DNA from: Bacteroidia bacterium
GTDB lineage: Bacteria > Bacteroidota > Bacteroidia > Chitinophagales > JAUHXS01
NCBI GenBank assembly: GCA_030426955.1
Contig: JAUHXS010000012.1
Span: 16,629-80,628 of the forward strand
Reading direction: 5' to 3'
DNA: 64,000 nucleotides
Program-made: the position numbers and the translations under genes
Shown here: positions 37,925 to 58,390 of the stretch, in pieces
Layout: each line of letters starts with the position of its first letter
How positions within the stretch are numbered: the stretch's first letter is position 1
Notes under the pieces: model-generated
Databases searched by the model: none
Told to the model about the DNA's origin: nothing
Seen by the model: only the letters and a program-made list of their open reading frames with translations

Positions 37925-38551
37925 ATGATTAAATATTTAGACAAGATAGATACCATCATATTTGACTTAGGAGGAGTGATTTTTGATTTAGATTATGATC
38001 TGACAGCCAAAGCTTTTAATAATTACGGTAAAATAGATTTCAATACAGTATATACTAAACTTGATCAAAATAGACTGTTCGATGCTTTTGAAAAAGGAGA
38101 AATAAGTAGTGAAAATTTTAGGACTGATCTCAAAAAGCAACTAGAAATAAATATTTCAGACAAGGAATTTGATAAAGCTTGGAACGCTATGTTATTAGGG
38201 TGGCCAAAGGATAGACTAGATTTAATTGCCTCAATTAAAGACAAATATCAATTGTTTTTATTGAGTAATACAAATGATATTCATTTAAATAAGGTGATGG
38301 CTATGCTAAAAGAAGAACATGGTTTGAATAACTTAAATCATCTTTTTTCACAGTGTTATTTTTCGAATGAAGTAGGAATGAGAAAACCAGATGCAGAAAT
38401 ATTTGAGTTCGTAATAAATGGCAATCAATTAAATCCTAAAAAAACCTTATTCATTGATGATAGCCCTCAACATATTGAAGGGGCTAGGCAGGTTGGACTA
38501 AATGTATATCATTTAGATGTTTCTAAAGAAAGTATCTTGGCAATACTTTGA
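37925..38551 (+). CDS. HAD-superfamily hydrolase (subfamily IA)
   Basis: 208 aa; motif I IIFDLGGVIFDL and C-terminal ...LFIDDS... motif. Confidence 0.75.
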   Translation: MIKYLDKIDTIIFDLGGVIFDLDYDLTAKAFNNYGKIDFNTVYTKLDQNRLFDAFEKGEISSENFRTDLKKQLEINISDKEFDKAWNAMLLGWPKDRLDLIASIKDKYQLFLLSNTNDIHLNKVMAMLKEEHGLNNLNHLFSQCYFSNEVGMRKPDAEIFEFVINGNQLNPKKTLFIDDSPQHIEGARQVGLNVYHLDVSKESILAIL

Positions 38552-40714
38552 TTAATTTAAAGTGATAACCTTTCCTTGAGTTTCATTTTTTGACTTAAAT
38601 TCAACGAAATAGAATCCTTTTGCTAGGTTCTCCAAATTTAGATCAAATTGATATTTTTTGCTTGCTTCATAAGTTTTTTGATATATCTCATTACCATGAA
38701 TGTTAAACAATTTAACAGTAATAGGATTTTTATCACTCATTTCTAAATTGATATAAACCCTATCACTCGTGGGGTTTGGTGCAATATTGATAGCCTTAAA
38801 TACGCTAAAAGGGTTATTCGGAACAGTATCTCCAGGGAGAAACGGATCTTCCTTCTTTCCAGGACCACCATTGATTATCTTAATCAGCTTGGTTACACTA
38901 TCTGTACAAGTGGCATTTGATGCGGTAAGCGTTACATTATAATAAGAGGTATCCACGCCAAGTACATTTTCAAAAGCATGACTAACCTGTTTTTCAGTAC
39001 TAAAAGTAGTATCTCCAAAATCCCAGAAATAGGTCATTGGATTTACAAACGACAGATTAAGAAATACAATTGTATCATTTGAAGTTGCCATACTCGCAGA
39101 TAAAAATTTTGCTGTTACAGACTCCGTTGAAGGGGCAATAGTAAATTGTCCAGTTACTGTTGAATCTAAGTTATCTGTTACAGTTATAGAGTAAGTACCA
39201 GTGGCAACATTTGTCAAATCTTTTGTGGTATCACCATTAGACCATAAATAAGTAAAAGGTGCTTCTCCACCATTTACAGTAATATTGATAGCCCCCAAAG
39301 CATCATCTTTACAACCTGCATTGGTAATTTGGGCTGTGACTTTTAGAACGGTTGTATCACAAGCAGTTACTGTAATAATTATAGAGTCAGTATAAGAGCA
39401 GTTTGATCCATTTGTTGCCTTAACAGATATTGTATCAATCGTTGCAATCGTTGACATATATTGAATTGTCTGAGTTGATTCGGTAGTAGACCATTCATAG
39501 ATTGTGCCACCTGTTGCGTCTCCTGTGTTTTCTCCATCTAATAGTAAACTCTTATTTAAACAAATAGAAGTATCATTACCTAAGTCAACAAAAGGGCTAA
39601 ACTTTTTGTCTAAAATGATGGTGTCTCTGGCCAAACATCCTAAACTATCAAATACGAATACACTAACTGTATCACTACTATTGATTTCTATAGATTGCGT
39701 GGTTTCTCCTGTAGACCATAGATATTTATGTTGTTCTCCAGCATCTAATGTTATACCATCACTTGAACAAAAACTTGTATCATTTCCTAAATTGACTGTC
39801 GGACCATTAGGACAAATGGGGTTAGCTAAAGTTACTCGACCAAAACTTTCTATACCAGACTGTTCGAAAAATTTTTCAGCTATATTCATAGAGTCAAAGC
39901 CAATTGTTGTCCATGTATTGCCCATGTTATCAGAGGCCAAAATAGAAAGACTATCTTCTGAAATACCATTCAATTCAACAGTATCAAAATATTCAACCCT
40001 AACTGTTGCATCTAATCCGACATTAAATGCTGGCGTAATGTCATAATAGCGTAATATGCTTTTTTTGCCTGCAGTTTGCTCGTTATGACCTCTTTTTATA
40101 ACGGTAGTGCCTAAGTTCGCTACAGAAGTAATGTGCAAACCAATGCCTGATATTTCTTCTGATGGACTGCTTAATAATGGACTAGCCAGCAAAAAACCAT
40201 TCCCAAATACTCGTGAAGAATCTGTTTCTCCAACCAATACTCCATTAGATTGCAAATCAATAGTGTGATTATTTAAATCAATATTTGTGCCTGATAGAAA
40301 AAGACTATCCTTTGCACTAATACTCGTTCGAAGCGAAATCGTGCTTGCATTTGAATTAACGTAAACCTTATTAAAGTTAATTTTTCCAGACCCACCCAAT
40401 GTATCTCCATGAAATATTACCGATCCTTCATCACCATCTGAAAAAAGCCCAGTATCTGAGTTATTGATGATATTACCATGAACTTGTATGGTTGCTCCTG
40501 GACATCCTGCAATATTGCCATCATTTACATCTGTTTGATTCACTAAATCACCAAACACATTGATGGTATCTACTGTCATTGTGATAGAAACACCGCCGTT
40601 GTAAAAAGCAGATTGACTGATAGAGTCAAGAGGCAAAAGGCTAAAGCCAAAAGCAACTAATAAAAAAGAATATTTTAATCTTTTAATTTTCAAATTATTT
40701 AACCTTCTAATCAA
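38552..40714 (-). CDS. Secreted PKD/Ig-like repeat protein with T9SS type A C-terminal sorting domain (last gene of the co-directional block)
   Basis: Signal peptide; internal PKD-like units (...YFWDFGDTTFS...); C-terminal ...INIAPNPTSDRVYINLE...KGFYFVEFKSKNETQGKVITLN is Por-secretion-tail-like. Confidence 0.55.
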   Translation of the reverse strand: MIRRLNNLKIKRLKYSFLLVAFGFSLLPLDSISQSAFYNGGVSITMTVDTINVFGDLVNQTDVNDGNIAGCPGATIQVHGNIINNSDTGLFSDGDEGSVIFHGDTLGGSGKINFNKVYVNSNASTISLRTSISAKDSLFLSGTNIDLNNHTIDLQSNGVLVGETDSSRVFGNGFLLASPLLSSPSEEISGIGLHITSVANLGTTVIKRGHNEQTAGKKSILRYYDITPAFNVGLDATVRVEYFDTVELNGISEDSLSILASDNMGNTWTTIGFDSMNIAEKFFEQSGIESFGRVTLANPICPNGPTVNLGNDTSFCSSDGITLDAGEQHKYLWSTGETTQSIEINSSDTVSVFVFDSLGCLARDTIILDKKFSPFVDLGNDTSICLNKSLLLDGENTGDATGGTIYEWSTTESTQTIQYMSTIATIDTISVKATNGSNCSYTDSIIITVTACDTTVLKVTAQITNAGCKDDALGAINITVNGGEAPFTYLWSNGDTTKDLTNVATGTYSITVTDNLDSTVTGQFTIAPSTESVTAKFLSASMATSNDTIVFLNLSFVNPMTYFWDFGDTTFSTEKQVSHAFENVLGVDTSYYNVTLTASNATCTDSVTKLIKIINGGPGKKEDPFLPGDTVPNNPFSVFKAINIAPNPTSDRVYINLEMSDKNPITVKLFNIHGNEIYQKTYEASKKYQFDLNLENLAKGFYFVEFKSKNETQGKVITLN

Positions 40715-41369
40715 TCAAAACATAGTGCCCTTTTCGTCCGACGCTTTCAAACAATAGCATCTGCTTGGTAGTGTTATTTCTCAATCTTAAAGTTCTAAAG
40801 GATTCGTCGTCGTCTGCAATACTATTATCAAAGCTACAACAAAACCCAGTTGAATTTGGCAATAGGTGACCTACATATCCCTCTCTAATTCTACCTCCAT
40901 CAAAAAATGAAATGGTATCTGTTAATGATTTATTGTGGACATTTAAAAAATAACCTGGTCCTCCTTGAACATTTATTGCTAGCCAATTGTTATTGATAAG
41001 TGTGTCGGCACAACCATCTGTTCCAAGACTTACATTTTCATACGGCGACATTCTGACCCATTCTGTTGCCATCGAATCATAAAACATCATATCCTTCACA
41101 GTAGAATCATATACTAATAGTGCATTTGCAGGATTGTTAATAGCTAATCGATTTGCAGAACTCATAACAGGAGGTAATAAGCCCTTATTAGGTGCTTGAA
41201 TATCTAAAATCGCTGAAGGGTCTGGACTTTCGGTATTGATGCCTAGCTGTGCATGTGATTGAAAAATTGAAAAATTAGAAAATTGTAAGATTAAAATGAT
41301 TAAGCTTGTAAAGCAAAATCTACAATCTTTCAATCTTTCAATCTTAAAATCTATAAACCTACTTATCAT
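40707..41369 (-). CDS. Secreted protein, paralog 3 of a tandem triplet with conserved N-terminal GINT...NKGLLPP motif
   Basis: Signal peptide, then AQLGINTESPDPSAILDIQAPNKGLLPPVMSSANRLAINNPANALLVYDST; overlaps both flanking genes. Confidence 0.5.
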   Translation of the reverse strand: MISRFIDFKIERLKDCRFCFTSLIILILQFSNFSIFQSHAQLGINTESPDPSAILDIQAPNKGLLPPVMSSANRLAINNPANALLVYDSTVKDMMFYDSMATEWVRMSPYENVSLGTDGCADTLINNNWLAINVQGGPGYFLNVHNKSLTDTISFFDGGRIREGYVGHLLPNSTGFCCSFDNSIADDDESFRTLRLRNNTTKQMLLFESVGRKGHYVLID

Positions 41370-42093
41370 AAGTCGCTATTCCTGTTAACAAAAACTTAGG
41401 TCCTTCCAAAGTGTCTTTAAATAATATTCCTTTAAAACTATAAACTCTGCCGTCATTACCCATTACTAATAAATTGAATCCCATCTGCGCATCAAAGTGT
41501 AGATTATAATAACCAATCGTTCTAGCATTACCAGGCATTAAAACTCCTCCTGCGTTAAAAGGCGGGCAACTTGGCTCACAAGGCTCAAGAGCTCCAAGTA
41601 TTTCGGTAAAAAAAGTAATCAATGCACCGCTACTCGATGGATTTTCTATTGTAATTGTAGTCAAGGTATCTGAGTAAACTTTCAACCATGGTAAATCAAC
41701 CAAAACGTTTCCACTATCTGTAAGCGACATTTCAAATTTGTCTGTTTTTCGGTTAAGTCTTTCCCATTGACTAAATGTTGTGTTATATGTAAAAAATGTT
41801 TGTAAATCTGTATCAAATACAATCAAGCTATTGGTGGGACTTGCAATTGCATTGCGTTGCAAACTTGTCATTCGAGGTAATAATAAGCCTTGATTAGTAG
41901 ATTGAAGTTGTAGGGCTGCAGAAGTATGTGGTGTGTCTACATTGATACCAACTTGTGCAGTAGCAGTTAGTGAACAGACACTAGTGGTTAGAATCAGTAT
42001 AACAGCAGTTATAAATTCTCTTGCATATAGCTTGGGTGCTACATTCTTAGTAAACAAATTCAAAGAATTATATGTAAAGCTATTTACATACAT
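41359..42093 (-). CDS. Secreted protein, paralog 2 of the tandem triplet
   Basis: AQVGINVDTPHTSAALQLQSTNQGLLLPRMTSLQRNAIASPTNSLIVFDTD; 11-nt and 10-nt overlaps with neighbours. Confidence 0.5.
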   Translation of the reverse strand: MYVNSFTYNSLNLFTKNVAPKLYAREFITAVILILTTSVCSLTATAQVGINVDTPHTSAALQLQSTNQGLLLPRMTSLQRNAIASPTNSLIVFDTDLQTFFTYNTTFSQWERLNRKTDKFEMSLTDSGNVLVDLPWLKVYSDTLTTITIENPSSSGALITFFTEILGALEPCEPSCPPFNAGGVLMPGNARTIGYYNLHFDAQMGFNLLVMGNDGRVYSFKGILFKDTLEGPKFLLTGIATYDK

Positions 42094-42767
42094 GTAAACC
42101 CTTTTTTCTCACTAAAAGTATAGGTTCCTCTAAAAATGGCCGTTGTTGGATCATAAATAGCATCTAACTTAATAAATGGTTTTCCCCCGTCTCCATCTAA
42201 TGTAATAGCAATTTGCAAATGACTGATTTCAGTTACCGAAGAGTAATCCAATATAAATGGTGTGCCTATTGTGTTGGCGGTATCTACATTATCTATTTTT
42301 AGATTATACCTCATTGTTCCCGAGGGTATTATTTCCAAAGTATCTTCATTCTTAATGTGAATATCTACAAAATCGTTTAATGTAATTTGATAAGTAGAAG
42401 GGTCTGTATCGTCTACCTCAAAGTATTTAGTTTGATTAAGCACTTTCCATTTTGAATCAACATTACTATCACCTAAAAGGTTTTGATAAAAATTGTGCCT
42501 TTGATTGGTTGAGTCAAACAGCCAAACCCCTTGTAATGTATTGTCTTCCATTTGAGCCATAGAATCATTTCGAACCCTAGGAACTAATAAGCCTTTATTT
42601 ATCGAACGAATGTCTAATATTGCTGAAGAATCTGGGTTGTTGTTGTTGATACCGATTTGAGAGAATGATTGGAAAATTGTAAGATTAGAATATTGTAAGA
42701 TTAGTGCAATTATTAAAACCTTAAACCAATAACTCATAAATGTTTTTAAAATCTTCAAATTTTTCAA
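42084..42767 (-). CDS. Secreted protein, paralog 1 of the tandem triplet
   Basis: SQIGINNNNPDSSAILDIRSINKGLLVPRVRNDSMAQ...; 3-nt gap to the upstream gene. Confidence 0.5.
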   Translation of the reverse strand: MKNLKILKTFMSYWFKVLIIALILQYSNLTIFQSFSQIGINNNNPDSSAILDIRSINKGLLVPRVRNDSMAQMEDNTLQGVWLFDSTNQRHNFYQNLLGDSNVDSKWKVLNQTKYFEVDDTDPSTYQITLNDFVDIHIKNEDTLEIIPSGTMRYNLKIDNVDTANTIGTPFILDYSSVTEISHLQIAITLDGDGGKPFIKLDAIYDPTTAIFRGTYTFSEKKGFTCM

Positions 42768-42770
42768 TCT

Positions 42771-44795
42771 TTAATTTATAATCAGTTTTACTTTTTCCGA
42801 TTTCGCCACTTCTCCAGTTTTACTAATTGTTCTCACTTGATAATAATACGAATTTTTTGACCGAATGGTGCTGTCTGCATAACTATTTGAGCTAGTTAAT
42901 GTTGAAACTGGAAACATTTTCCCACCTTCTTTCATTCTGTAAACAACATAACCCGTTATCACTTCTTCAGTTCCAATCCAAGATATTTTCGCTATTTTTT
43001 GTGCCGTATCATACGCTACCATTACATTGGAAACAGCATTTGCTAAAATGATATTGGGTATTTGGACTTCATAGATGTTTGAATATGGAGATTTATTACC
43101 AATCAAATCCATAGACTGCACTTTGTATTCATATTCTACACCTTTCTGAATTGATTTGTCATTATATTTTGTAACAATCTTTTCTAGTGTTGCTAGTTTA
43201 GTCCAACTATTAGCACCTTTTATACTTCTAAATACATCAAATTGTTTTAAATCAGCATCAAAAACTGGAAGCCATTCTATTAGGACAGAATTAGAATGAA
43301 CGATTGATTCCTTTATAAATGGTGTAGCTGGAGGCGTGACATCAGGTAAGACATCTCCAGCAGATGATGAAAACTTACTTCTATTGCCCACTTTATCCAT
43401 CGCGATGATTTCATAAGTAAACTTATTTCTAGCATTCTTTGGAAGTATGTCTATATAGTTATTCTCTTTTATAACTTCAGGTGAAATCAATTGTCGGTGT
43501 ATTGCTCCATCTTCAAATGCGTTTCGATAAATCCAGTATCCATCAATATCGGGTTCGGAGTTTGCATTCCATGATAAAACCATTCTTCCTGTATCTGCTT
43601 TAACTTTTAATCCAGTTGGAATGGCTGGAGGTGTTTTGTCCTCAACTGACACACTTATCGTATCTGAAAATGAAGCGTTTCCTGATTTGTCTGAAGCCTT
43701 GAGATAATAATAATAGTTTTTACCTTCTTCTACTGCTTTATCTTTTAAAGTCTTTTGATTATTAAGGTCTGATTGATTCAGTTTATTAAAAATGCTACCT
43801 CTCTTTTCAGATTTATAAACATCCAATGTTCCTGAATATTTTGTAAGGTAATCCCAGTTCAGTTCTACAATTCTATTTGTTACTCTGTGTTCTTTCCAGT
43901 AAGGAGCATCTGGAGCAGTTTCATCTTTCGTGGAAATTTTAAATGGCTTTGAAGGCGTAACTTCTTTATTAAAGAAGTTTAAGCCAACTAGAGAATAGTA
44001 GTAGGTTTTTCCCTCTTGAATTGTATCTGCATAATAATAATCTGGGCTGACATATTTCCCATCTTTATTCATCACTTCATTAACAAGTATTGGCAAGTCA
44101 TTTATTTGCTCACCTTTTGAATCTGGTAATACTGATCTATAAATATTCACTGCATAAAATCGTTTATCTTCAGGCAACCATTTAATTTGAATTTCTTTTT
44201 TCCTTTGTTTAATGTCAATTCCAGAAACTGGTTTTTCAACTAAAGGAGTACCAGCTGTTATTAGTGGAGACACTCCAACTTCAATTTCCTTATCATCTTT
44301 GATATAGGTGATTTTATACTGTACAGACGTTCCTTTTTCAATTTCATCATTGACAATGTATGACCCAGTAAATTTTGCAAATTCATTATTAGTAATCATT
44401 TTCATTATAACGGCTAATTTCGGAATCCCCTGTAACGTTCCGTAAGCCGAGTCGGCAACAATAGTCGCGACTTCAAATTTCATGCTTGTATCACCAATAA
44501 CGCTTGGGAAGTTCGTATATCTAGGATATGGCGTATCGTAAACTTTTTTGAAACTTTTCCCCTTATCAAATGATTCATAAATAAATACTCCATCAGGATA
44601 AGTAAGTTGCTCAGAAAACCACTTTAGTTCGATATGTTCGGTTTCAGTAGAAGTACGGACGTACACCTGCGCTTGAGAGGTATTAGGGACTAGGCAATAG
44701 GAAATAGTAATTAGCCAATAGCCAATAGCCAATAGCCATTGAAATGAACTATCGATATTTAGTTTGAAATCCACTTTTGCCTTTTGGTTCTTCAC
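42771..44795 (-). CDS. Secreted/anchored protein with multiple fibronectin-III-like repeats
   Basis: 674 aa; N-terminal hydrophobic segment; repeated ~95-aa units with W/Y-containing Fn3-like strand patterns (...IQIKWLPEDKRFYAVNIYRS..., ...IEWLPVFDADLKQFDVFRS...). Confidence 0.45.
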   Translation of the reverse strand: MKNQKAKVDFKLNIDSSFQWLLAIGYWLITISYCLVPNTSQAQVYVRTSTETEHIELKWFSEQLTYPDGVFIYESFDKGKSFKKVYDTPYPRYTNFPSVIGDTSMKFEVATIVADSAYGTLQGIPKLAVIMKMITNNEFAKFTGSYIVNDEIEKGTSVQYKITYIKDDKEIEVGVSPLITAGTPLVEKPVSGIDIKQRKKEIQIKWLPEDKRFYAVNIYRSVLPDSKGEQINDLPILVNEVMNKDGKYVSPDYYYADTIQEGKTYYYSLVGLNFFNKEVTPSKPFKISTKDETAPDAPYWKEHRVTNRIVELNWDYLTKYSGTLDVYKSEKRGSIFNKLNQSDLNNQKTLKDKAVEEGKNYYYYLKASDKSGNASFSDTISVSVEDKTPPAIPTGLKVKADTGRMVLSWNANSEPDIDGYWIYRNAFEDGAIHRQLISPEVIKENNYIDILPKNARNKFTYEIIAMDKVGNRSKFSSSAGDVLPDVTPPATPFIKESIVHSNSVLIEWLPVFDADLKQFDVFRSIKGANSWTKLATLEKIVTKYNDKSIQKGVEYEYKVQSMDLIGNKSPYSNIYEVQIPNIILANAVSNVMVAYDTAQKIAKISWIGTEEVITGYVVYRMKEGGKMFPVSTLTSSNSYADSTIRSKNSYYYQVRTISKTGEVAKSEKVKLIIN

Positions 44796-44807
44796 TTTTG
44801 ACTCTAA

Positions 44808-47800: not shown

Positions 47801-50174
47801 AAGTTGTTGTTCGATCAAGTTTTGCTTCATGTCCATTACAATAGATACTTTCTAAATCCAGATACGCTTCATCTTCTTGTTTATTTGAAATGGGAACTTT
47901 AAAGGTATACTTGTTCTCCTCTTTTATTGTTTCTCCTTTTATCTGTGTAATAGCGTAGCCTAAAATATAACTATCTTTAATTTCATCTTTCACTATTTCT
48001 AACTTCAACTTGGTAAGCGTACCATGACATTCGGTGTAGTTGACATCATATTTCCCAATACCCTGATAGTTTGTTTCTGCTGAGCAATTTAATCCCTCCC
48101 CATCTATCCAACCTGTTGCATTTGAGTTAAACTCTGGTTGAATCAGTTTATTATAACTCAACTTTCCGCCAAATTCAACATCCTTTTGATGGTTGATCTT
48201 AAATGACTCGAAGTAAACACCTTTCCAATCATTTTGGGTGACAAATTGCCCAGGAGATTTTTTTGAGCTAAAGTCTATAATAGCATTTTTAGGGGCAATG
48301 GTAATAGATTTATAATATCCCACTGAATAAGGAGTGTTAAGAATGTTTTCTGTTATATATTCAAACTGATCTGCTTTTGTAAAGTTTGTTATATAATCTT
48401 TTGTGATTGCTTGACCACTCATTTCAACCGAAACTTCATTATCGCTAATGACATAAGCAGCATTTTCTAAAACTTTTAGCTTGATGTTTTCGGCAATATC
48501 TAAGTCGATGTTTTCTCCTAATAATACTTGCCCATTCAATTTATAGCTATTAAAATCGACCCACTGATCTTTTGTTTGCAATACAAATGAAGTGTCTCCA
48601 TTAGCTTGATCTAATGAAAACTCATTCTTGATATAGCCTTGGAGTTCTAACCCCGATTTATTTAATCTGGCTTGTTTTACACTAAATTTTAAATCAGATG
48701 GGTTTCCATTCTCTATTAAATTGATGGTTTTATTTCTAAACGGATAAAGAATTTCACCACCTTCTAAAACCATTTTTCCAGCAACGTTTTTAATGTTCAA
48801 GGCATTAAAATCTACTAAGTATTCAGCGGTATCTTCAAATATTTTAAGCTTTCCTTGTCCTGTATAGTTTTTTAAATCTGGATTTGTGATGTCTGAAATT
48901 GCTATAATATGATCTCCCGCATAAATACTGGCTGTTCCAGCAGTAAAAGTTCTTACCGCGCTTTTAGCAATAGGTGTTTCGTATACAATGGCACTCACTT
49001 CCCAAGCATATTGCTTACCTTCTTCTAAAGGTTTTTCCAAAGCAAACTCATATCCAAAAGCATGCGGAATTTCTTCAAAGGTTTCCTCATAGAAAGGCGT
49101 ATTGTATGCAATAGCATCTGTACCTGATTGATTAACTTGTTGCTCTACTATTTTTACACTGTAATTAATTGGCTCACCCATTGGAGCATTGTCAGGACCT
49201 TGCCACTTGAATATTGGTGTGCCGATTGCAACAAACGATTTATCTTTAGGCTTGGCCAATGGAATGTTGCCTCCTTTTAAGTCTACTCCGTAGTTAAACC
49301 AGCAAACTTCATTTAATCCATCATTCTCAAATATTGAAACGCCGTTTGCATCACTGGCTTTTATTCTGTAAGCATAGGTTTCGCCTATTTCTAACTGAAT
49401 TTGCTCTGGTCCATAGTAAAAAGATGTACCTAATGAAAGCTCATCATCTAATAAAGGTGTATTGGCACTATTGATAGCATCATTAGGGTTAATTTGTTCT
49501 GGAACTTGCACTAATGTGATTTCATAATTAGTCTGAATAGCTAAGCTAGCATAAGGTTGCCATTGAAATAAAATGTTTTGAGAACTGCGTGCAGGAACAG
49601 TTGAACCACAAGCAGGATAAATTGAAATTGGAGGATTGTTTTTGACAAACAGTGCAGATCCACAGGCTGGAGCTGCTAACGCAAGCCCTGTATTATAATC
49701 TAGAGCCTCTATGCAAATCGTATAAAACCCTTCTGGCAATGAACCTGATTGCAATAAATCTTGCTTGTTGATGCCACTTGCATTTAGGTTATTGTAGTTT
49801 AAGTAAGGGGTTAGAATGTTTCCACCTATTTCATTTGAACCTGGAAATAAGTTGATTGGATTGGGACGATAGTTTTCAGGCGTTTCAAGAAAAACTTGGT
49901 TGTTACTAATGGTGATTTTTAATCGAACATCGGTAGAAGGTTCATTAAAATCGTTAAAAACTAGGTTTACTTTAAACCTTTCAAATCCAGATACAACGTT
50001 ATTGCTTAAATATACCGAATAGGGTGGTGTGATCGAAAAGTTGGTGGTGACAGGGTAAATGGTCTGTGCCAGACAGTTTAAAGTTATTAGTTTGAAGTTT
50101 AAAGTTATTAGTATCAGTAACAACCTTAAATTTCTAACTTCAAACCTCAAACCAATATGTTTTTTAATTTTCAA
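44808..50174 (-). CDS. Giant secreted protein (1788 aa) with Cys-rich C-terminal tail; no recognisable named domains
   Basis: Signal peptide; 5.4-kb uninterrupted ORF; C-terminal ...PPVCWFTCTRRSWKCAGCCSWGTDCNYP... carries 9 Cys in about 30 aa. Confidence 0.5.
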   Translation of the reverse strand: MKIKKHIGLRFEVRNLRLLLILITLNFKLITLNCLAQTIYPVTTNFSITPPYSVYLSNNVVSGFERFKVNLVFNDFNEPSTDVRLKITISNNQVFLETPENYRPNPINLFPGSNEIGGNILTPYLNYNNLNASGINKQDLLQSGSLPEGFYTICIEALDYNTGLALAAPACGSALFVKNNPPISIYPACGSTVPARSSQNILFQWQPYASLAIQTNYEITLVQVPEQINPNDAINSANTPLLDDELSLGTSFYYGPEQIQLEIGETYAYRIKASDANGVSIFENDGLNEVCWFNYGVDLKGGNIPLAKPKDKSFVAIGTPIFKWQGPDNAPMGEPINYSVKIVEQQVNQSGTDAIAYNTPFYEETFEEIPHAFGYEFALEKPLEEGKQYAWEVSAIVYETPIAKSAVRTFTAGTASIYAGDHIIAISDITNPDLKNYTGQGKLKIFEDTAEYLVDFNALNIKNVAGKMVLEGGEILYPFRNKTINLIENGNPSDLKFSVKQARLNKSGLELQGYIKNEFSLDQANGDTSFVLQTKDQWVDFNSYKLNGQVLLGENIDLDIAENIKLKVLENAAYVISDNEVSVEMSGQAITKDYITNFTKADQFEYITENILNTPYSVGYYKSITIAPKNAIIDFSSKKSPGQFVTQNDWKGVYFESFKINHQKDVEFGGKLSYNKLIQPEFNSNATGWIDGEGLNCSAETNYQGIGKYDVNYTECHGTLTKLKLEIVKDEIKDSYILGYAITQIKGETIKEENKYTFKVPISNKQEDEAYLDLESIYCNGHEAKLDRTTTYIKFEDGKYVFDGGTASVKVFKEGDELYVGECRSVALENHDQMNSGTVRGTLKEKYIELDNEDQGYTEFIPGFFRLYNARGLELHGRVWWSFPIAIKDSSAIASSKTVWFDFNNKKITGKVEWYSHINKTYELVDPLDYTVKLDGNYCYYDIKDSKVKLNFGGSIFLPEKIKTADGRRMELRFRNADKVTYIKTDQSVLTGLSNTFRPADQTDISITPQICEAYFADDSPLKDNIKGVKLTTYALNLGEKLDSKGRFVFSHQGHAINPQFPSEDEKTKMESTLYLTASGFQGNVTYKNLKERELNNRRMRLHEFLTWFTDLSVTFEDNIVSEGVANGYIPLRVMNNKPIRYQVPLTNYGFQPASLIDLDDGSGMIVYDEDKTYRNSTLTIKKGEFKSTDKLRTTIDLDFDEYGLKVRNMPGFDIWSDGEVGFYDQRDQQADLEEPIDGKLLDLFDLTIDRITASRINNVYRIGFNAIINMAENLSGYYLEVGPSGAKEIKNGPTRISVVSLSGNDPKFTSERGFSRMGVNFDVILAQAAAEGQFYVNDPEWGTCFKAYGLLGMMLPVDFYANAKFILGKKDGYSYWFAQAGLDVETPTGTATGDIGPTQKIKNKYANKMNKEKGAKPVKKVKEFLQGKVVKNELTRLGIPFGPMRILGGEIRVYHHMRHDFGNAIMNERYSIDQNTENVGPDITNAAYIPDGGVEGGAYLRLTMVDGYTMGFDHLIEGAIEVNGLQGGINEVAMDIKWGIKNYYLPAFGYISTLRGKGKFYYNRPDRRFFTSLQLESGTPNLCVDAIGVFTSDPYGFRLTLGSFERRILVKPGCFGFSPTGWLDVTQNYFELGLGIDLGAYFYAPWIDIGIVKVKPYAYAYLAGGGAGKAVFSPGFNIPTLYFWADASAGISCKYKYPDIPLPPVCWFTCTRRSWKCAGCCSWGTDCNYPKITGASGTWSLASARLTGNLGLRKLDSSPEMFGTLNGYVTVVGQGVSFGLEVDQKLY

Positions 50175-50183
50175 ACCTTCTAA

Positions 50184-51845
50184 TCAAAAAGAATAACGAT
50201 AGTTAACTGTGCCTCTCACTTCACTAAAATTTTGTGTATCACTTTTTCTATTTACATAAGTAGTATTGAAGCTAATATTATGTTTTTTGTAAAACTTATA
50301 GCCAACAGATAGTCTTGCAGTGTAGGTATACCCATCAGCATTTCCGCTTGTAGTTCTTAATAAATAAGAGTTAAACAAACCTACTTTAATTTTCTTTTCA
50401 AACAAGTCCTTTCCAATTCCTACTGTTGGACCAATGTTGGTTAAATCCAAGACATCTGATTGCATCTTATTATAGTTTCCTGCCAAAGTCCACGTCAAAC
50501 CGATTGGGTGTATATTGTATCGGTAACTCAGAATGGTGTTTTGAAAAGTTGTGATTTGTTCGCTAATTCGATACTCATCTCTCGCATTGGCAACTTGGAA
50601 ACCTGTATTTAGAGAAAGGCTTTGTTTATGTTCTTTCGAACCAAAGGAGTAGTTTGCATTAAAGTTAGCATTTGTAGATACTTGGTAAAAATTCAATGAA
50701 TCTGTTACATCATCTCTAATTGCTTGTATGGAGGAAGAAAAGTTAGAAAATGCTAATCCTAAGTTAAGTTGTTGAGTCACTAAGTAATTAATGTTTGCCG
50801 AGCCTATTAGTCGAGTCGTTTTACTAGCCTCAGTGTTTTTTAAGTTATTGTGCTGAAAACCAATAGCACCGTTTATATTCATTTTCTTTTTTAACATCTG
50901 CCACCCTGCGCTCAATGTGATATCCTCCAAATCATTGTTGAAGAAATAAGCCCCCATTGTTTTATAATCTCCTTCTACTCTTTTATACATCAATTTCAAT
51001 TGATATCCTTCTCCTTGATATCCTAATCCTGACTGAATAGCATTATTATAGGAGGTAGTTGTTCTAGCAGTATACAAACCGCTCGTGGCTGAATAAATAC
51101 CATTCGGGTTTTCCGTTATCTCAGAATTGATATCATCTGAATAAGCACTCTTTGCAAATTCTAACTCAAAGCTCAATTTTTTAGTCAGCATTTTCTTTCC
51201 ATTGAAGCCCAAAACTAGATTTTCCGCTGGAGTAATACCTAAACTTGAGTCCTCATTTACTATAGAATTCACGTCGTCTTTCGCTTTAAATAGGATAAGA
51301 TCGATGAAGTTGTTATCATCTCCATATCCAAGTTTTAGTCCATAGCCTAGCCTTTTATAAGAGGCCGACTCTCCTAAAAGGTTGTTTGCTTCAACAGCTC
51401 TTCTGAATCTACCGTAAACAAAAGCAAATCGATATTTCTCAGGTGTTAGTTCAACTCCCGCACCTAAAAAGGTATGCCCTGCAAGGGTATGTGGGGAAAA
51501 AGTAACATTTCGATATCCAGCATGAACCTTAATCCATTTATAATATGGACTTGCTCCAAACTGATTAAAAGGTTGGCGAAAATCTGTGTTTTGATTAGTG
51601 AAGTAAGCGCTAAAAGGCACTTGAATGCCATAAAAGCTCATATTTAGATTGGCATTAGCAGACCAGTTATAAGGATCACGTCGATCTTCTATTCCAGAAG
51701 CGGTATATCCAGATAGAGAACCACCAATTGATCCATTGATTTTAAAGGGCTCGGCTTTAGCGACACTTTCTAAGTCTTGTGCCTTTAGATGTCCCGTCGA
51801 AACGACTATTAAAATGAGTAATACTAACCTTGATTGGTGCACCAA
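50184..51845 (-). CDS. Outer-membrane beta-barrel protein (553 aa)
   Basis: Signal peptide; amphipathic beta-strand periodicity throughout; C-terminal ...GTVNYRYSF with terminal Phe, typical of an OMP signature. Confidence 0.5.
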   Translation of the reverse strand: MVHQSRLVLLILIVVSTGHLKAQDLESVAKAEPFKINGSIGGSLSGYTASGIEDRRDPYNWSANANLNMSFYGIQVPFSAYFTNQNTDFRQPFNQFGASPYYKWIKVHAGYRNVTFSPHTLAGHTFLGAGVELTPEKYRFAFVYGRFRRAVEANNLLGESASYKRLGYGLKLGYGDDNNFIDLILFKAKDDVNSIVNEDSSLGITPAENLVLGFNGKKMLTKKLSFELEFAKSAYSDDINSEITENPNGIYSATSGLYTARTTTSYNNAIQSGLGYQGEGYQLKLMYKRVEGDYKTMGAYFFNNDLEDITLSAGWQMLKKKMNINGAIGFQHNNLKNTEASKTTRLIGSANINYLVTQQLNLGLAFSNFSSSIQAIRDDVTDSLNFYQVSTNANFNANYSFGSKEHKQSLSLNTGFQVANARDEYRISEQITTFQNTILSYRYNIHPIGLTWTLAGNYNKMQSDVLDLTNIGPTVGIGKDLFEKKIKVGLFNSYLLRTTSGNADGYTYTARLSVGYKFYKKHNISFNTTYVNRKSDTQNFSEVRGTVNYRYSF

Positions 51846-51869
51846 ATGGATGGTTTACATAAGAAAAAG

Positions 51870-51877
51870 CAAATATA
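51870..51877 (-). promoter_or_regulatory. Candidate Bacteroidota -7 promoter element (TAtaTTTG) upstream of the beta-barrel gene
   Basis: The minus-strand sequence TATATTTG matches the Bacteroidetes sigma-A -7 consensus TAnnTTTG, about 25 nt upstream of the ATG at 51845. The -33 TTTG lies at a non-ideal spacing. Confidence 0.25.
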
Positions 51878-51970
51878 CATTCAATCTTAGGTCAAACCTA
51901 AATTTTTGGGATAAATGACACTTGAAGTATTAAATAGCTAAGCCAAAGGTACTTTTGAAATAACAATTGT

Positions 51971-52384
51971 TTACAGCTTAAACTGCAATTCCACCTTACT
52001 GCCATTATCAGAGAAAGAGATCAGGTCAGAAAGCTGAGTCATTAAGAAGACACCACGACCGTTAGGTTTGTCTAGATTTTCTTCTTTAGTTGGATCAGGT
52101 AAATTGTTGTAATCAAAACCTGGGCCTTCATCTTCCACAAAAAAAGTTAAAGCTTTGTCTTCCTTTTGGTGGCTAATTTTAACTTGTTTGCTTTCATCAG
52201 CCTGATTGCCGTGCATAATAGCATTATTAACCGCTTCTGTCATTACAACCAGCATATTGCTATATATCTCGTCAGAAATATCATACTCATCTTTGAGCTC
52301 ATCAATCAATGGTTCTATCCTAGTTATATTTTTAGGATTAGATTTTAAAACGAGTTCAGCATCTTTTAGCAAACTGCCCATCAC
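51971..52384 (-). CDS. HATPase_c-type anti-sigma regulatory factor-like Ser kinase (RsbW/SpoIIAB-like)
   Basis: 137 aa; ...EAVNNAIMHGN... N-box and ...DEGPGF... G1-box of the GHKL ATPase fold. Confidence 0.55.
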   Translation of the reverse strand: MMGSLLKDAELVLKSNPKNITRIEPLIDELKDEYDISDEIYSNMLVVMTEAVNNAIMHGNQADESKQVKISHQKEDKALTFFVEDEGPGFDYNNLPDPTKEENLDKPNGRGVFLMTQLSDLISFSDNGSKVELQFKL

Positions 52385-52396
52385 ACTAATTTAACA

Positions 52397-55300
52397 TTAA
52401 AAAGTAATTTCCTTAAAATAGTCTTCTACTAAATTTTTGTAAAAAGGTTTCAAATTTGGTGGTAAAGTTTTATATAAATCTATTTCAGCTTGTCTTTTTT
52501 TGAGGTATTCCTCAATTTCAGGAGGTGTTTTCTTTTCAATTTCTTGAGCTGTATTCGATTTTCTTTCCTGATCCAGTTCTCTTTCTCGTTCTGCATCTTC
52601 AGCTTCCAATAATCTTGTCATAATATCTTCTTGACGACGCATAATTTCTTTAGATAATCTTTTGTTTACCAAATCCTCTTCTGTTTTTTCCATCTCATCG
52701 ATGAGTTTGCCTAAATCGCCGTAAGCGTCTTTACCCTCTTTTCCACTTTTGCTGTTCAGCTCTTCTAGTGCTTGTCGTATTTGAGCTTGTTGCTGTGCCA
52801 TTTTAGCGAACTCTCTGCTCATGCCTGATTTGCCCCCAGGTTTGCCCTCCTTCATCATTTTTTGTAAATCTCCGATTTGTTGGTTGAGTTGTTTCTGCAA
52901 ATCGCCCATCTTCGACATCTTGCCACTTTTCCCGCTTTTGCTTCCGCCAGGGTTCTGACAATTTTGGCTTCCCTGCATATTGCTTGCCATTTGTTCTTGC
53001 ATAGATTGCATGACCTCGCTCATCATTAATGCAAGATTATTTAATGAGGTCATTGCGTATTGTTGCCTTATGCTCGCATTTCTAGTATTTCTCGCCTCTA
53101 AGTAATCGATGCTTTCCTCAACTTCCTTAGAAAGCTTATTGACCTCTTTGGTTACAAAAGATTCAATCTGAAAAACTTTCTTTGCAAGTGAAAGTAGACT
53201 GTCTTTAACCATATTAGATTCATCTTTAAGTTTATATTGATCTTGAATAAGTGTAACGTACTCAGGACTTTTTTGGCTGGTGGTATTTAGTCTTGCTATC
53301 AAGTCTTCCTGATCGAATGAAAGCTGGATTAAGTTTTCTAAAATCTGTCTCACTGCCTCAAGGTTTAGAGCAGTCTCTTGAGATTGCATCTGCTGTTGCA
53401 TGCCTTCTAATTGCTGTGCTAAATCCCCCATTTTTTCGGAAGATTGTTTTTGTTGTTCAGATGCTTTCTTAGACTTGTTATCTTGTAAGCTTTCCTTTGA
53501 TTCTTGCATACTTTTTTTGATGTCTTCTACTTTGGGTTTTGTATCATCAATAGACTGATCTGTTTTATTGCCTGTTTTCTCCTCCAACGATTCTTGCTTT
53601 TTGTTTAGATCGTCAAGTTTTTTTTCTAAATCATCGAATTGTTGAGTAATCTCTTCTTGCTTTTCTTGTAATTGTTCAGGAGACTCTTGCTTATCTTCGG
53701 TTTCTTTACTCAACTCTTCTTGCTTTTGAGAAAGTTCTTTGAGATCATCAATGGTCTCCTGCAAGTCTTGCTCAAACTCCAACTTTTCAAATAATGCCAA
53801 CATCTGGTCTAAATTCTGCTCCATCTCCTCATTGTTCGTTTCAAATTCTTCTAGTTTTTCAATAGCATTTTCATTATTTAACTTTTCTAAAAGATCAGAG
53901 AGCTTATCCATCAGCTCTTTGACTTCATCAGACATAGTTTCCTCTAATAACTTCTGTAGCTTATCGTATTTCTGTAAAACCTTTTCGTCAAACTGTTTAA
54001 ACTTTTGTTGCTGTGATAAATTCTCCTTAAAGTTTTCCTGAATGGATTCTACCATATTTTGCAGATCCTTTTGTTTTTCTATGACACTTTTTATCTGATT
54101 CTTATCTTGCCAATCTAGATTCTTTTTCTGAAGAAGATTTTCTTGAATTTGTTTTATTTCCTCCCTCATTTTCTTCGCTTCATCAATTGTTTCACTTAAA
54201 TCATCTTTTAGCTCATCATCTTTTTGGTCTGCTAGTCTTTGCATTTCATTTTTGTCGGGAAGTGATAAAGTCAGTAACCCTGAGCGAGTGTACTTGCTAC
54301 CATTAATAGCATCATTATCCCACACTTCAAAGTAATATGAAACTTCATCTCCAGGCTGAATATTAAGGTCTTTAAAGTTTTTATAATGTGTAAATATTTG
54401 ATAAGTGCTTCCTTTTTGAATGTCAATTTTTTCAGATATAAAGCTTGTCTCTGTTTGATCTTGTTTATCAATTTTATATTTAAAAAACAGATTCTTCAGA
54501 CCATAATCGTCAGAGATATCTCCTAAAAAGTATAAGTAAGTTAAGTCAGTCGAATCAACCTTAGGATCAACTTTTATAGATGGATATAAATCAGGTATTG
54601 TATTAATTGTATACTGAATGGAGTCGCCTACAGGCACCTCTGTTCCTTCTGTATAGATGGTGTAAAGTTGGTTAGAAAGAATTTTTCTGTTGATCTCAAA
54701 TCTTTCTTCTTGTTTGTTGTTGGCAATGAGACGTTTGTTGTCGTCAAACTTGAGACTTATGCTACGGACACTCTTTCCTTCAAAATTCCAAGACACCTTT
54801 GTACCAACGGGGATGTAGAGGTCACCAGTATTCTTTAATACGTCATTCTTTTTATTGATATAACTAGGATAGTTTAGCTGTACTTCAAAGCTAGAAATCA
54901 GAGGCTTTTTTAACATGTTGATTTGATATCGTTTGGAATAGTGCCCCAATGCTTCAACTTGAAAACTCAAGTCACTTTGAACATTCTTGAGTTTGTGACT
55001 AAATGAACTGAGATCTGATTTTGACATTTTCACTTTCTTTCCATCAATGATTAGAGAAGCATTATTCGGAATGGCTGTTCCTTCGAGTTTTATCAGAATA
55101 TCAAGATCATCAAATTGCACCACATCAAGTGATGAGTTTAGCAATTTAAATTGAAATGGAGCTGCTTTTTCAAACGCTGTATTATTTTGAATAATTCTAT
55201 TAGTACCATCCTTGATAATGTCAGGAGAAATGAAGAGAATTAATAAAATAGTCAAAAGAGGCGGAATGGCATATTTGAGATACTTTTTATTATCACCAAG

Positions 55301-55756
55301 GTCAATGGCACTGCTGAAATTGATATGTCCTATTTCTTGTGTTTTTTGCTCAATACCAGCGATCAAAAGATCATTGGATTGACCGATAGCCTGGTCGTTT
55401 TTTAATTGAAGAATATTAAGCAATTTGTCTTTTATCTCTGAAAAGTGTTCGCCGATTACTTTTGCTGCTTGGGCGTAAGATAAGTGTTGTCCAATCTGAT
55501 AATATTTAAATGTCGGTATGGCAATTAAATTATAACAAAACCATAGGGCTGTCCCGATAAAGCCATAGAACAAAATTTTCCGGGTAAGTGTATTGAAATA
55601 AAAATAATACTCCAACAAATCAATTGCCAAAAATAAACCCAGTATCAACCCAATGGATATAAGGCTGCCTTTAATAAGTTTATTCAAATAGTACTTTCGT
55701 ATAAACTTATCAAGCTTTTGAAGTAATTGGCTATGATTGTTTTGGGTAGTATTCAC
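52397..55756 (-). CDS. Large membrane protein (1119 aa): two N-terminal TM helices, a central beta-rich region and a ~550-aa E/K/Q-rich coiled-coil C-terminal half
   Basis: Hydrophobic segments at about aa 30-50 and 60-80; the C-terminal half is low-complexity coiled coil (…QEELSKETEDKQESPEQLQEKQEEITQQFDDLEKKLDDL…). Resembles Bacteroidota DUF4175-type proteins by recollection. Confidence 0.45.
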   Translation of the reverse strand: MNTTQNNHSQLLQKLDKFIRKYYLNKLIKGSLISIGLILGLFLAIDLLEYYFYFNTLTRKILFYGFIGTALWFCYNLIAIPTFKYYQIGQHLSYAQAAKVIGEHFSEIKDKLLNILQLKNDQAIGQSNDLLIAGIEQKTQEIGHINFSSAIDLGDNKKYLKYAIPPLLTILLILFISPDIIKDGTNRIIQNNTAFEKAAPFQFKLLNSSLDVVQFDDLDILIKLEGTAIPNNASLIIDGKKVKMSKSDLSSFSHKLKNVQSDLSFQVEALGHYSKRYQINMLKKPLISSFEVQLNYPSYINKKNDVLKNTGDLYIPVGTKVSWNFEGKSVRSISLKFDDNKRLIANNKQEERFEINRKILSNQLYTIYTEGTEVPVGDSIQYTINTIPDLYPSIKVDPKVDSTDLTYLYFLGDISDDYGLKNLFFKYKIDKQDQTETSFISEKIDIQKGSTYQIFTHYKNFKDLNIQPGDEVSYYFEVWDNDAINGSKYTRSGLLTLSLPDKNEMQRLADQKDDELKDDLSETIDEAKKMREEIKQIQENLLQKKNLDWQDKNQIKSVIEKQKDLQNMVESIQENFKENLSQQQKFKQFDEKVLQKYDKLQKLLEETMSDEVKELMDKLSDLLEKLNNENAIEKLEEFETNNEEMEQNLDQMLALFEKLEFEQDLQETIDDLKELSQKQEELSKETEDKQESPEQLQEKQEEITQQFDDLEKKLDDLNKKQESLEEKTGNKTDQSIDDTKPKVEDIKKSMQESKESLQDNKSKKASEQQKQSSEKMGDLAQQLEGMQQQMQSQETALNLEAVRQILENLIQLSFDQEDLIARLNTTSQKSPEYVTLIQDQYKLKDESNMVKDSLLSLAKKVFQIESFVTKEVNKLSKEVEESIDYLEARNTRNASIRQQYAMTSLNNLALMMSEVMQSMQEQMASNMQGSQNCQNPGGSKSGKSGKMSKMGDLQKQLNQQIGDLQKMMKEGKPGGKSGMSREFAKMAQQQAQIRQALEELNSKSGKEGKDAYGDLGKLIDEMEKTEEDLVNKRLSKEIMRRQEDIMTRLLEAEDAERERELDQERKSNTAQEIEKKTPPEIEEYLKKRQAEIDLYKTLPPNLKPFYKNLVEDYFKEITF

Positions 55757-55819: not shown

Positions 55820-55850
55820 AAAAAAGCGTTTCATTTGAAACGCTTTTCCA
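55820..55850 (-). terminator. Rho-independent terminator after the substrate-binding-protein gene; it insulates the downstream block
   Basis: Hairpin gcgtttcatttgaaacgc with flanking A/T runs, 19 nt downstream of the 55869 stop and upstream of the 55756 start. Confidence 0.6.
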
Positions 55851-57838: not shown

Positions 57839-58390
57839 ATGAAATTGATAAATATAATTGGGTTTTGTTCCGCCATATTTCTGCTGTCTTTTGTATTTCT
57901 AAGCGCTTGTAAAAAAGATAAGGAAGAAGAAAAGTTAGAAAAAGGACCTTGTACGCTAGAAGATAAGGATTGGAGCAGTTCTAAGATAAATGACAAAGAA
58001 ACTTGCCTTGAGCATTGTGGTGTAGAGTATTATGAGCAAAATACAGATAGTGCTTATTTACAATTGACGAGTTATACAGGTACTGTTTTCGGAGACGGAG
58101 CTTCTATTGAGGCTAGTTTTTTAGTAGGTATTTCAGGGTTAGCCTTAAATACAGCCTATCCCCTTATTGAAGGCAAATATTTTCAAATAGAAGACATATA
58201 CCAAGGCGAAATTATATTAACCCATTACGATGTTCCTGTTGCCTCTGGAACTCAAAATATCTGTATTATTGGCAATTTTAGCCTTAAAAGCAGAAACCCC
58301 AATAACCCTTCGGCAGAAACAAACATCACCAATGGACAGTTTAGATATATGCTTGCTGGAGGAGATGCTTATACCAATTGTTTACCATAA
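57839..58390 (+). CDS. Lipoprotein, function unknown (first of three adjacent lipoproteins)
   Basis: Signal peptide plus lipobox LSACKKDKEEEK. Confidence 0.4.
   Translation: MKLINIIGFCSAIFLLSFVFLSACKKDKEEEKLEKGPCTLEDKDWSSSKINDKETCLEHCGVEYYEQNTDSAYLQLTSYTGTVFGDGASIEASFLVGISGLALNTAYPLIEGKYFQIEDIYQGEIILTHYDVPVASGTQNICIIGNFSLKSRNPNNPSAETNITNGQFRYMLAGGDAYTNCLP

Follow-up and report, generated by a model that had tools for sequence, protein, structure and literature searches.

In a 64,000-nucleotide stretch of a Bacteroidia bacterium genome (contig JAUHXS010000012.1), hereafter the window, seven genes on the minus strand extend from an outer-membrane β-barrel gene (50184-51845) to a gene for a type IX secretion system (T9SS) cargo (38552-40714). 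We read them as a variant of a widespread Bacteroidota envelope module around TANFOR proteins, in which the barrel would serve as the conduit or anchor of these proteins, and we give this reading an even chance. TANFOR proteins (TIGR02542) were described as Bacteroidetes polymorphic toxins by Jana, Salomon & Bosis 2020 (PMC7073777). About 87% of them carry Sec signals, the neighborhoods of their genes show a strong enrichment of SprB repeat, Fn3, PKD and Por_Secre_tail domains (Table 1 of that study), and more than 95% of their host genomes have a T9SS; the export route was unknown and a link to the T9SS only speculative. No later mechanistic work on TANFOR export was found in the literature searched. 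By its predicted domains (Fn3, SprB, PKD and Por_Secre_tail), the window block is a fit to the published TANFOR neighborhood signature. The set formed by the barrel, a giant protein with its core body and an Fn3 protein, and its association with PTL_trimer proteins, appear to be unreported in the literature searched. The first-pass annotation had proposed an undescribed system here; this seems to hold for the barrel, the core and the PTL_trimer partners, while the TANFOR neighborhood was already published.

The association between barrel and TANFOR genes was followed in related loci (n = 84), each extending no more than 10 kb from the barrel in either direction. Open reading frames (ORFs) in them were taken from stop to stop, and profile hidden Markov models (HMMs), among them those for the barrel, the TANFOR N-terminal domain (TANFOR-N) and the core, were built from matches found in this analysis. 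A TANFOR-N gene lies directly 3' of the barrel gene in 56 of the 79 loci that have room downstream of the barrel, and in 52 of the 75 that are left when the loci fetched through the giant are set aside. In 5 further of the 79 loci a TANFOR gene is found elsewhere in the locus. The barrel-adjacent genes that can be classified comprise 55 TANFOR-positive genes (at least 30 of them with a detectable core body) and 8 TANFOR-negative genes. By these profiles the barrel is the commonest immediate neighbor of TANFOR genes.

The gene order of the window also recurs. Barrel, giant, Fn3 protein and SprB-repeat T9SS cargo follow each other in L001, L002/L003 and L006 with 26-47% identity to the window proteins, L006 being the best genome match, and a PTL_trimer protein is encoded 5' of the barrel in L001 and L002/L003. 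In the distant loci L004 and L005 the barrel and the giant are retained, and a type B T9SS cargo gene followed by a PorP/SprF gene is located directly upstream of the barrel. The 674-aa secreted protein with tandem Fn3 repeats (42771-44795), for which Pfam confirms the Fn3 repeats named in the first-pass annotation, has Titin-like Fn3 matches in the PDB. Its homologs of about 640-760 aa are found in 36 of the 84 loci, nearly always just 3' of a TANFOR or core gene, and the Fn3 protein is, by this predicted synteny, the conserved third member of a barrel/TANFOR/Fn3 set. Barrel, giant, Fn3, PTL_trimer and cargo genes thus co-occur across distant Bacteroidota, which the first-pass annotation had named as a point to check for all of these but the cargo. 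A chance juxtaposition of unrelated secreted-protein genes could be imagined, as Bacteroidota are rich in T9SS cargo and in Fn3 and PKD proteins and the window alone encodes four proteins with T9SS tails. However, dozens of distantly related genomes have these families, at 25-47% identity, arranged in one and the same order, and the seven genes occur together far more often than expected by chance; we regard a chance origin as hardly credible.

The barrel (552-553 aa) has a Sec signal and belongs to a conserved family without a name. Its AlphaFold2 model, with a predicted local distance difference test score (pLDDT) of 83.9, is an all-β barrel of about 24-26 strands, in agreement with the barrel of 553 aa that had been annotated, and the C-terminus reads ...YSF. 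In the model the strands begin right after the signal peptide; the barrel is plug-less and has no POTRA domain. Pfam, NCBIfam and PHROGs return nothing for the barrel even at relaxed thresholds (E<=10), and PDB sequence searches with single proteins and profiles of the barrel and the giant return nothing or only low-complexity helical matches. The fold matches of the model include the ushers FimD and PapC (346-349 aligned residues), MtrB (379) and LptD; the superposition with FimD and PapC is a generic one between predicted and known barrels. Identity with PorP/SprF or PorV was rejected, as the barrel has no PF11751 match and its strand number is far above the 14 of a FadL-like barrel; true PorP/SprF neighbors of barrels score down to 8e-70 on PF11751. 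The family is large and uniform in length (about 560 aa), with at least 1571 matches at 37-48% identity. Among 1.84 billion representatives, 3,284 clusters match at E<=1e-3 and 1,763 at E<=1e-30. At least 551 GTDB species, from 185,579 species representatives, have relatives, a patchy and not a universal distribution; most belong to Cytophagales, Saprospiraceae, Chitinophagales, Sphingobacteriales and Bacteroidales, and few to Flavobacteriales. The barrel is better conserved than its partner proteins. A barrel family does not appear in the domain-enrichment tables of PMC7073777, as is to be expected for a protein without any annotated domain.

Among the long barrel homologs no fusion of barrel and TANFOR was found; the extensions are LysM, cadherin-like or coiled-coil. 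The homolog P0256 has three N-terminal LysM repeats, P0241 has C-terminal cadherin-like segments and two LysM repeats, and others have C-terminal coiled-coil extensions of 250-330 aa. LysM fusions, taken with OmpA-fused PorP proteins encoded next to barrels, suggest an attachment of the apparatus to the cell wall.

The giant, of 1788 aa, is encoded 9 nt downstream of the barrel gene (50184/50174). Its N-terminus has a hydrophobic stretch ending in ...NCLAQ and followed by TIYP, which we read from the sequence as a Sec-type signal. Pfam and NCBIfam give no match to the giant even at E<=10, and neither a toxin family nor a two-partner secretion (TPS) domain is among the hits. After the signal peptide, residues of about 18-296 (49287-50123) can be read as a divergent N-terminal TANFOR domain. 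In BLASTP this region matches the N-terminus of P0043 at 5e-50 with 39% identity, and it matches P0065, a protein ending in a Scabin-like ADP-ribosyltransferase, at 2e-27; the giant matches P0046 with E 1e-41. Another relative of the giant carries PT-HINT. On relatives TIGR02542 itself gives 2e-10 (P0046), 8e-8 (P0057) and 4e-4 (P0065). The giant has few homologs: some 36 of full length, sharing 25-31% identity with it, were recovered, all from Bacteroidota metagenome-assembled genomes. The giant is conserved over its whole length in them, its C-terminus being conserved across 27 full-length homologs, and it is therefore not polymorphic.

The body of the giant, residues of about 404-1788 (44808-48965), is all-β and corresponds to a stand-alone family of about 1500 aa, here called the core, which matches the giant from residue 404 or so to the end (hhalign 99.4%, E 4.5e-21, 852 columns). 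As the core family is homologous to this body, the window giant is therefore read as a fusion of TANFOR and core. An especially widespread segment corresponds to residues of about 1276-1540 of the giant and contains a GRxYHHM motif. A Cys-rich tail of the giant had been noted in the first-pass annotation. There is indeed a cluster of 7 Cys in 35 residues near the C-terminus (44991-45095), which is no family feature: its occupancy is 0.50 across the 27 full-length homologs, and it is therefore regarded as a lineage-specific insertion. Many full-length homologs have a helical, coiled-coil-like insert in the middle (alignment profile positions of about 920-1270) that matches apolipoprotein and designed helical repeats in the PDB with E of about 1e-3; the window giant is β-rich at this place. 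No precomputed match to a T9SS C-terminal domain exists among 71 homologs of the giant and of TANFOR proteins, and in a Pfam scan this domain is absent from all proteins of the block except the cargo encoded by the last gene. Homologs without a T9SS tail therefore need a route other than classical T9SS cargo export.

The last 640 residues of the giant were modelled as an all-β structure with long hairpins (pLDDT 73.7 overall and 85-93 in the final ~300 aa), and these final ~300 aa form a barrel-like β meander. The best matches of this predicted structure are transmembrane barrels and LptD with low TM-scores, and they are indicative of the fold class only. Giant and barrel might then form an envelope-biogenesis machine, like TamB/TamA or LptD, that moves lipids or outer-membrane proteins. 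The resemblance of the C-terminal model to membrane β meanders, with LptD as top Foldseek match and ApoB β-belt chains also listed, would agree with such a machine, as would the LptD-like strand number of the barrel, the LysM-fused barrel homologs and the OmpA-fused PorP neighbors. However, no AsmA, DUF490 or LptD sequence signature is present and the TM-scores are only 0.1-0.2. The family is patchy (about 550 or more of the 185,579 species representatives), relatives have polymorphic toxin tips and small follow-on ORFs, and the giant starts with a cleavable-type signal peptide and not with an inner-membrane anchor. An envelope-biogenesis role is very improbable in our judgement.

Returning to the TANFOR module, its two arrangements become visible in three TANFOR loci that were fetched through TANFOR proteins (L086, L087 and the P0065 locus), two of which are toxin-tipped. 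In L086 and L087 the barrel gene is followed by those of a non-TANFOR core (about 1500 aa), an Fn3 protein (about 700 aa) and a TANFOR protein, and then by further ORFs. The TANFOR protein of L087 carries PT-HINT, and L086 has an additional 153-aa ORF after the barrel. In the P0065 locus, proteins of 1519 aa and 712 aa, an SprB-repeat protein and a 247-aa protein are followed by the Scabin-tipped TANFOR protein and two 140-aa ORFs; its sequence ends upstream before the position where a barrel could appear. Where the core is a separate gene, the TANFOR domain is thus predicted on toxin-tipped proteins encoded after the Fn3 gene. Barrel, core and Fn3 protein are, by these predicted gene orders, a recurrent set in which TANFOR is either fused to the core, as in the window, or separate. 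In the window locus itself no toxin or immunity gene can be recognised, and the gene after the giant is that of the Fn3 protein.

Three short genes follow the Fn3 gene: paralog A (42084-42767), paralog B (41359-42093, protein P0192) and paralog C (40707-41369). Their products are tandem paralogs with a common N-terminal motif, as had been proposed, with mutual E values of 1e-17 to 7e-9. The motif, Q-[IVL]-GIN...P..SA.L....G.L.P, stands directly after the signal peptide and is invariant across an alignment of the three window paralogs with the L001 and L002 proteins. Paralog B has a precomputed match to PF26696 (PTL_trimer), which is also present on its 32 listed homologs; the assignment of paralogs A and C rests on the alignment and on paralogy. 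Pfam, NCBIfam and PHROG searches gave no family match on any of the three, even at relaxed thresholds. Homologs of paralog B join the motif to Fibrinogen_C, Fib_succ_major, Peptidase_S74 and other head domains, and phage tail-collar/Gp10_C domains stand at the end of the syntenic PTL_trimer proteins of L001 and L002. The C-terminal domains of the window paralogs are short and divergent. Loci with a window-type giant encode PTL_trimer proteins in 10 of 16 cases, other loci in 0 of 68 (Fisher p = 3e-9), and by this predicted distribution they are specific to the window-type giant subtype. They look like exchangeable binding heads that are tied to this subtype. A larger array is observed in a Salibacteraceae metagenome-assembled genome (L079:974-6173, minus strand), where five tandem PTL_trimer paralogs of 319-343 aa, more than the three of the window, are located upstream of, and divergent from, a barrel/TANFOR-core/Fn3 set.

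The conserved unit is smaller than the block that was first annotated. The first-pass annotation had described nine tightly packed ORFs, all on the minus strand, as one apparatus, with the first two genes sensing for or regulating a surface machine. The coordinates and the spacing are borne out. Measured from maximal ORF starts, the gaps are 12 nt between the DUF4175 and HATPase genes (52397/52384), 125 nt between the HATPase and barrel genes (51971/51845), 12 nt between the giant and Fn3 genes (44808/44795) and 3 nt between the Fn3 gene and paralog A (42771/42767), and the last three junctions (paralogs A/B, B/C and C/cargo) overlap by 10, 11 and 8 nt. The 125-nt gap (51846-51970) is the sole real intergenic gap. 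The first gene (52397-55756, minus strand) encodes a 1119-aa protein with a Pfam DUF4175 match (3.4e-14), in which the two N-terminal hydrophobic segments and the long charged, coiled-coil-like region of the original description are seen. The second (51971-52384, minus strand) encodes a 137-aa SpoIIAB/RsbW-like protein with a HATPase_c_2 match (1.2e-22). A kinase of anti-sigma type had been proposed for it. The HATPase_c_2 domain stands, and the equivalog models remain far below their cut-offs, TIGR01925 with 43.9 bits versus 135 and RsbW with 37.6 bits versus 145. No STAS antagonist or sigma gene is present in the nine-gene block. With these scores and no adjacent STAS or sigma partner, a SpoIIAB/RsbW partner-switching kinase was rejected.

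No relatives of the DUF4175 and HATPase proteins are found in the 84 related loci (E<1e-5 for DUF4175), in which the module begins with the barrel itself or with a PTL_trimer or PorP/SprF gene that precedes the barrel. As both genes are absent from these loci and lie beyond the 125-nt gap, the unit is predicted to consist of seven genes and not nine, from barrel to T9SS cargo, and the DUF4175 and HATPase genes are merely its neighbors. The syntenic module is what stands of the nine-gene apparatus. For the pair only the absence from module loci is demonstrated by these comparisons, not conservation in other contexts; a metagenome scan with the single DUF4175 protein found no relatives. The nine-gene model with DUF4175 and HATPase as sensors or regulators is supported by the co-directional tight packing and by a terminator that precedes the first gene only: a hairpin (55822-55847) with a minus-strand T run at the end of the upstream SBP_bac_5 gene, found where the earlier annotation had placed it (55820-55850), and no terminator-like site within the 125-nt gap. 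In addition to the absence of the pair from the 84 loci and to the boundary seen elsewhere, a Bacteroidota-type -33/-7-like motif in the gap counts weakly against it. This site, TTTG-N15-TATATTTG at 51870-51896, is about 25 nt before the barrel start codon, and the gap is a possible start of a separate seven-gene transcript, on weak evidence. The motif is found 6 times in the window with 6.1 expected, i.e. at chance frequency, and the boundary argument therefore rests on synteny. A sigma-70-type promoter scan and a terminator count over the region also stayed at chance level. We consider the nine-gene model improbable. At the other end, the block abuts a convergent HAD gene (37925-38551, plus strand) as annotated, the HAD gene ending exactly at the stop codon of the last block gene.

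This last gene (38552-40714) encodes the 720-aa T9SS cargo, with a Por_Secre_tail domain (PF18962, 5.1e-13, residues 646-717; TIGR04183, 6.5e-11), one SprB repeat (5e-9) and one PKD_4 domain (1e-7) in Pfam, within Ig-like repeats. A sorting tail and an N-terminal signal peptide identify it as a type A cargo. The earlier description as a PKD-rich type A cargo is thus right for the tail and not for the PKD content, as Pfam finds one such domain. The N-terminal ~280 aa are conserved (1e-34 to 4e-38) in much longer cargos at the same position in L001, L002/L003 and L006. With the type A tail of the window cargo, PorP/SprF is not needed.

The cargo brings in another explanation, namely that the module is an accessory of the T9SS and its gliding adhesins: barrel and giant would themselves export nothing and would anchor or organise the SprB-like adhesin at the outer membrane in the manner of SprC/SprD/SprF, and TANFOR proteins would ride on the adhesin. 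The SprB-repeat T9SS cargo is a part of the module here and in L001-L003 and L006, and in L004 and L005 the barrel is preceded by type B cargo and PorP/SprF genes. TANFOR genes have SprB and Por_Secre_tail domains enriched in their vicinity, with more than 95% of TANFOR genomes having a T9SS (PMC7073777), and the window genome encodes GldB and several other T9SS cargos. Moreover, PorP_SprF, mostly OmpA-fused, was found in 17 of the 27 barrel-upstream ORFs of about 500 aa that were scanned. However, neither SprC nor SprD resembles the barrel, the TANFOR domain or the core, and PorP_SprF and PorV signatures are missing from the barrel. A PorP/SprF gene is missing from the window as well, the cargo of the block has a type A tail, and many barrel/TANFOR/Fn3 loci have no T9SS cargo within 10 kb. 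The T9SS-accessory explanation stays alive because 18 of the 79 barrels have no TANFOR gene and PorP/SprF neighbors are frequent, but we judge it unlikely.

For this comparison, sprC-sprD-sprB of Flavobacterium johnsoniae type was recovered from metagenome contigs via the published primer 1294, and two other primers confirmed the gene limits; primer 1295 gave no match in genome contigs. On the metagenome contig Ga0157369_10003340 (L089), SprC (489 aa) combines Ig-like domains with a weak type B (CHU_C) tail. SprD (1537 aa) opens with a full PorP_SprF domain (5e-43), after which some 1,240 residues have no family match. SprC and SprD match neither the barrel nor the TANFOR HMM; the core HMM gives E = 3 and BLASTP against the window proteins gives E > 0.09. 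The first-pass annotation had named SprB/RemA-type operons as a possible known identity of the block, and for sprCDBF no similarity was found. The module as a paralog of sprCDBF was rejected, as SprC and SprD have no similarity to barrel or giant and the Pfam architectures differ. To be noted, sprCDBF itself (L089:3126-9208) reads as two cargo/PorP-type pairs, SprC-SprD and SprB-SprF.

Several observations weigh against the reading of the seven genes as a TANFOR module. On the giant itself TIGR02542 scores E 0.024 and 14.6 bits versus a cut-off of 67, in an alignment that is near end to end (giant residues 46-171 to model positions 8-138 of 145). The 80 genome loci were taken for their high similarity to the window barrel and do not form a random sample, and among the 79 loci with room downstream of the barrel, 18 have no TANFOR gene within 10 kb. 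With the frequent PorP_SprF neighbors, the barrel may work with T9SS components instead of, or besides, TANFOR proteins. The C-terminal model of the giant is of moderate confidence and its fold matches are generic. We infer the export or anchor role of the barrel for TANFOR from gene adjacency and protein features, and a role of the window locus in antagonism would be extrapolated from its relatives. Co-transcription with, and regulation by, the DUF4175/HATPase pair may still be compatible with the sequence. The barrel may serve TANFOR proteins or T9SS components, and on this point the proposal is least secure.

Barrels without TANFOR downstream were seen in L010, L011, L012, L016, L022, L026, L076, L081 and L082, in up to 10 kb of downstream sequence and in only about 1.2 kb in L022 and L026. 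All of these but L026, with its upstream ORF of 505 aa, are in the 27-ORF PorP/SprF scan, the matches of which are not assigned per locus. Such barrels may represent a second genomic context of the family.

If the TANFOR module reading is correct, the barrel would be the dedicated conduit through the outer membrane, and/or the anchor in it, by which TANFOR-tagged proteins come to the cell surface, with the TANFOR domain as their common docking tag. Core and Fn3 proteins would form a stalk or scaffold, PTL_trimer proteins would provide interchangeable fibre-like binding heads, and the T9SS-exported SprB-like protein would be a co-operating adhesin. The likely role of such a module would be a contact-dependent surface interaction, in adhesion or antagonism, of which the window locus would be the structural, toxin-less version. 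A more specific form of the proposal is possible, though doubtful in our view: barrel, core and Fn3 protein would constitute an export and display pathway that is independent of the T9SS translocon, uses TANFOR as its tag and delivers structural giants as well as polymorphic toxins, the window locus being a toxin-less fused form with exchangeable PTL_trimer heads. The barrel/core/Fn3 set is a concrete candidate for the missing TANFOR export machinery. Should this be borne out, Bacteroidota would have a new way to display very large proteins on their surface, with a bearing on interbacterial competition in gut, oral, soil and marine communities, and the fused toxin-less variant with fibre-like accessories would show how such a machine comes to be repurposed, for example for adhesion. 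If the barrel is only a T9SS accessory, it would still define a new conserved T9SS-associated outer-membrane family.

The block is flanked by housekeeping genes. The window also encodes the gliding-motility lipoprotein GldB (14537-15589, plus strand; PF25594, 5.8e-110), which indicates that the host has a gliding/T9SS apparatus. Beyond the cargo of the block, three T9SS cargos are encoded at 5125-7377 (plus), 8197-11475 (minus) and 16070-17752 (minus). One of these has a type B CHU_C tail and PKD, one has four PKD and two Laminin_G_3 domains with a type A tail, and one has a β-helix and a type A tail. Despite this type B cargo, a PorP/SprF gene was found nowhere in the window. Just beyond the SBP_bac_5 gene, three overlapping co-directional ORFs of 183, 412 and 244 aa on the plus strand (57839-58390, 58378-59616 and 59579-60313) have no Pfam match at 1e-5. 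A 449-aa ORF (36119-37468, plus strand) has a weak match (1.4e-6) to the C-terminal domain of copper type II ascorbate-dependent monooxygenase, a domain that is unusual for bacteria. Finally, the gene at 18021-21332 on the minus strand encodes a ribonucleotide reductase of class II (B12-dependent), which is 1103 aa long and has a TSCPD domain at its C-terminus.

A comparison with known systems places the module apart from those whose barrels it resembles in fold. In agreement with the first-pass annotation, Pfam, NCBIfam, PHROGs and PDB searches with the module proteins gave no match to Gld/Spr, T9SS core, Sus, pilus or contractile-injection families. FimD/PapC, LptD-LptE and MtrB-MtrA have no sequence relationship to the module barrel. 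Unlike FimD and PapC, this barrel has no usher plug, N-domain or C-domains and is not accompanied by a chaperone gene, and the module has neither an LptE-like lipoprotein nor a cytochrome partner. A chaperone-usher pathway was rejected, as no protein of the block has an usher or chaperone Pfam match. Contractile-injection, type VI secretion system (T6SS), Sus and pilus assignments were also rejected; no family match was found, and phage tail-collar domains are absent from the window paralogs. The module resembles T6SS effectors (evolved VgrG/PAAR; MIX/FIX) in that a delivery domain is either fused to a structural protein or present on separate nearby toxins, whereas the machinery is entirely different and the block has no T6SS or contractile-injection genes. 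With sprCDBF of F. johnsoniae it shares the clustering of an SprB-repeat adhesin gene with genes for mid-sized and ~1500-1800-aa proteins, as well as PorP/SprF genes nearby in some module-related loci. In contrast, SprC is an Ig-like cargo with a type B tail and SprD a PorP/SprF barrel with a long extension, while the window has a type A cargo and no PorP/SprF gene.

The TANFOR loci of PMC7073777 share with the window a giant Sec-signal protein, whose N-terminal domain we read in the window as a divergent one of TANFOR type, the same neighborhood domains and a T9SS host. The window giant differs from them in having no C-terminal toxin and no downstream immunity gene and in not being polymorphic, and PMC7073777 and its tables make no mention of the barrel, the core family or the PTL_trimer proteins. 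As the window giant is far below the TIGR02542 cut-off, the filter used there (RPS-BLAST E<1e-7) would miss this subtype. In the TpsB-TpsA and CdiB-CdiA systems of two-partner secretion and contact-dependent inhibition (CDI), the proteins differ from those of the module: the module barrel is not an Omp85 protein, has about 24-26 strands versus 16 and has no Pfam match, with no POTRA, Bac_surface_Ag or ShlB match found on it, TANFOR is not a TPS domain, and the module adds conserved Fn3 and core proteins. The arrangement is alike. An outer-membrane barrel gene is followed by a giant exoprotein gene, giants that otherwise vary share a conserved N-terminal domain of about 300 aa, and relatives end in polymorphic toxins followed by small ORFs. 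By this analogy, the likeness of the module to two-partner secretion and CDI is one of logic and not of descent.

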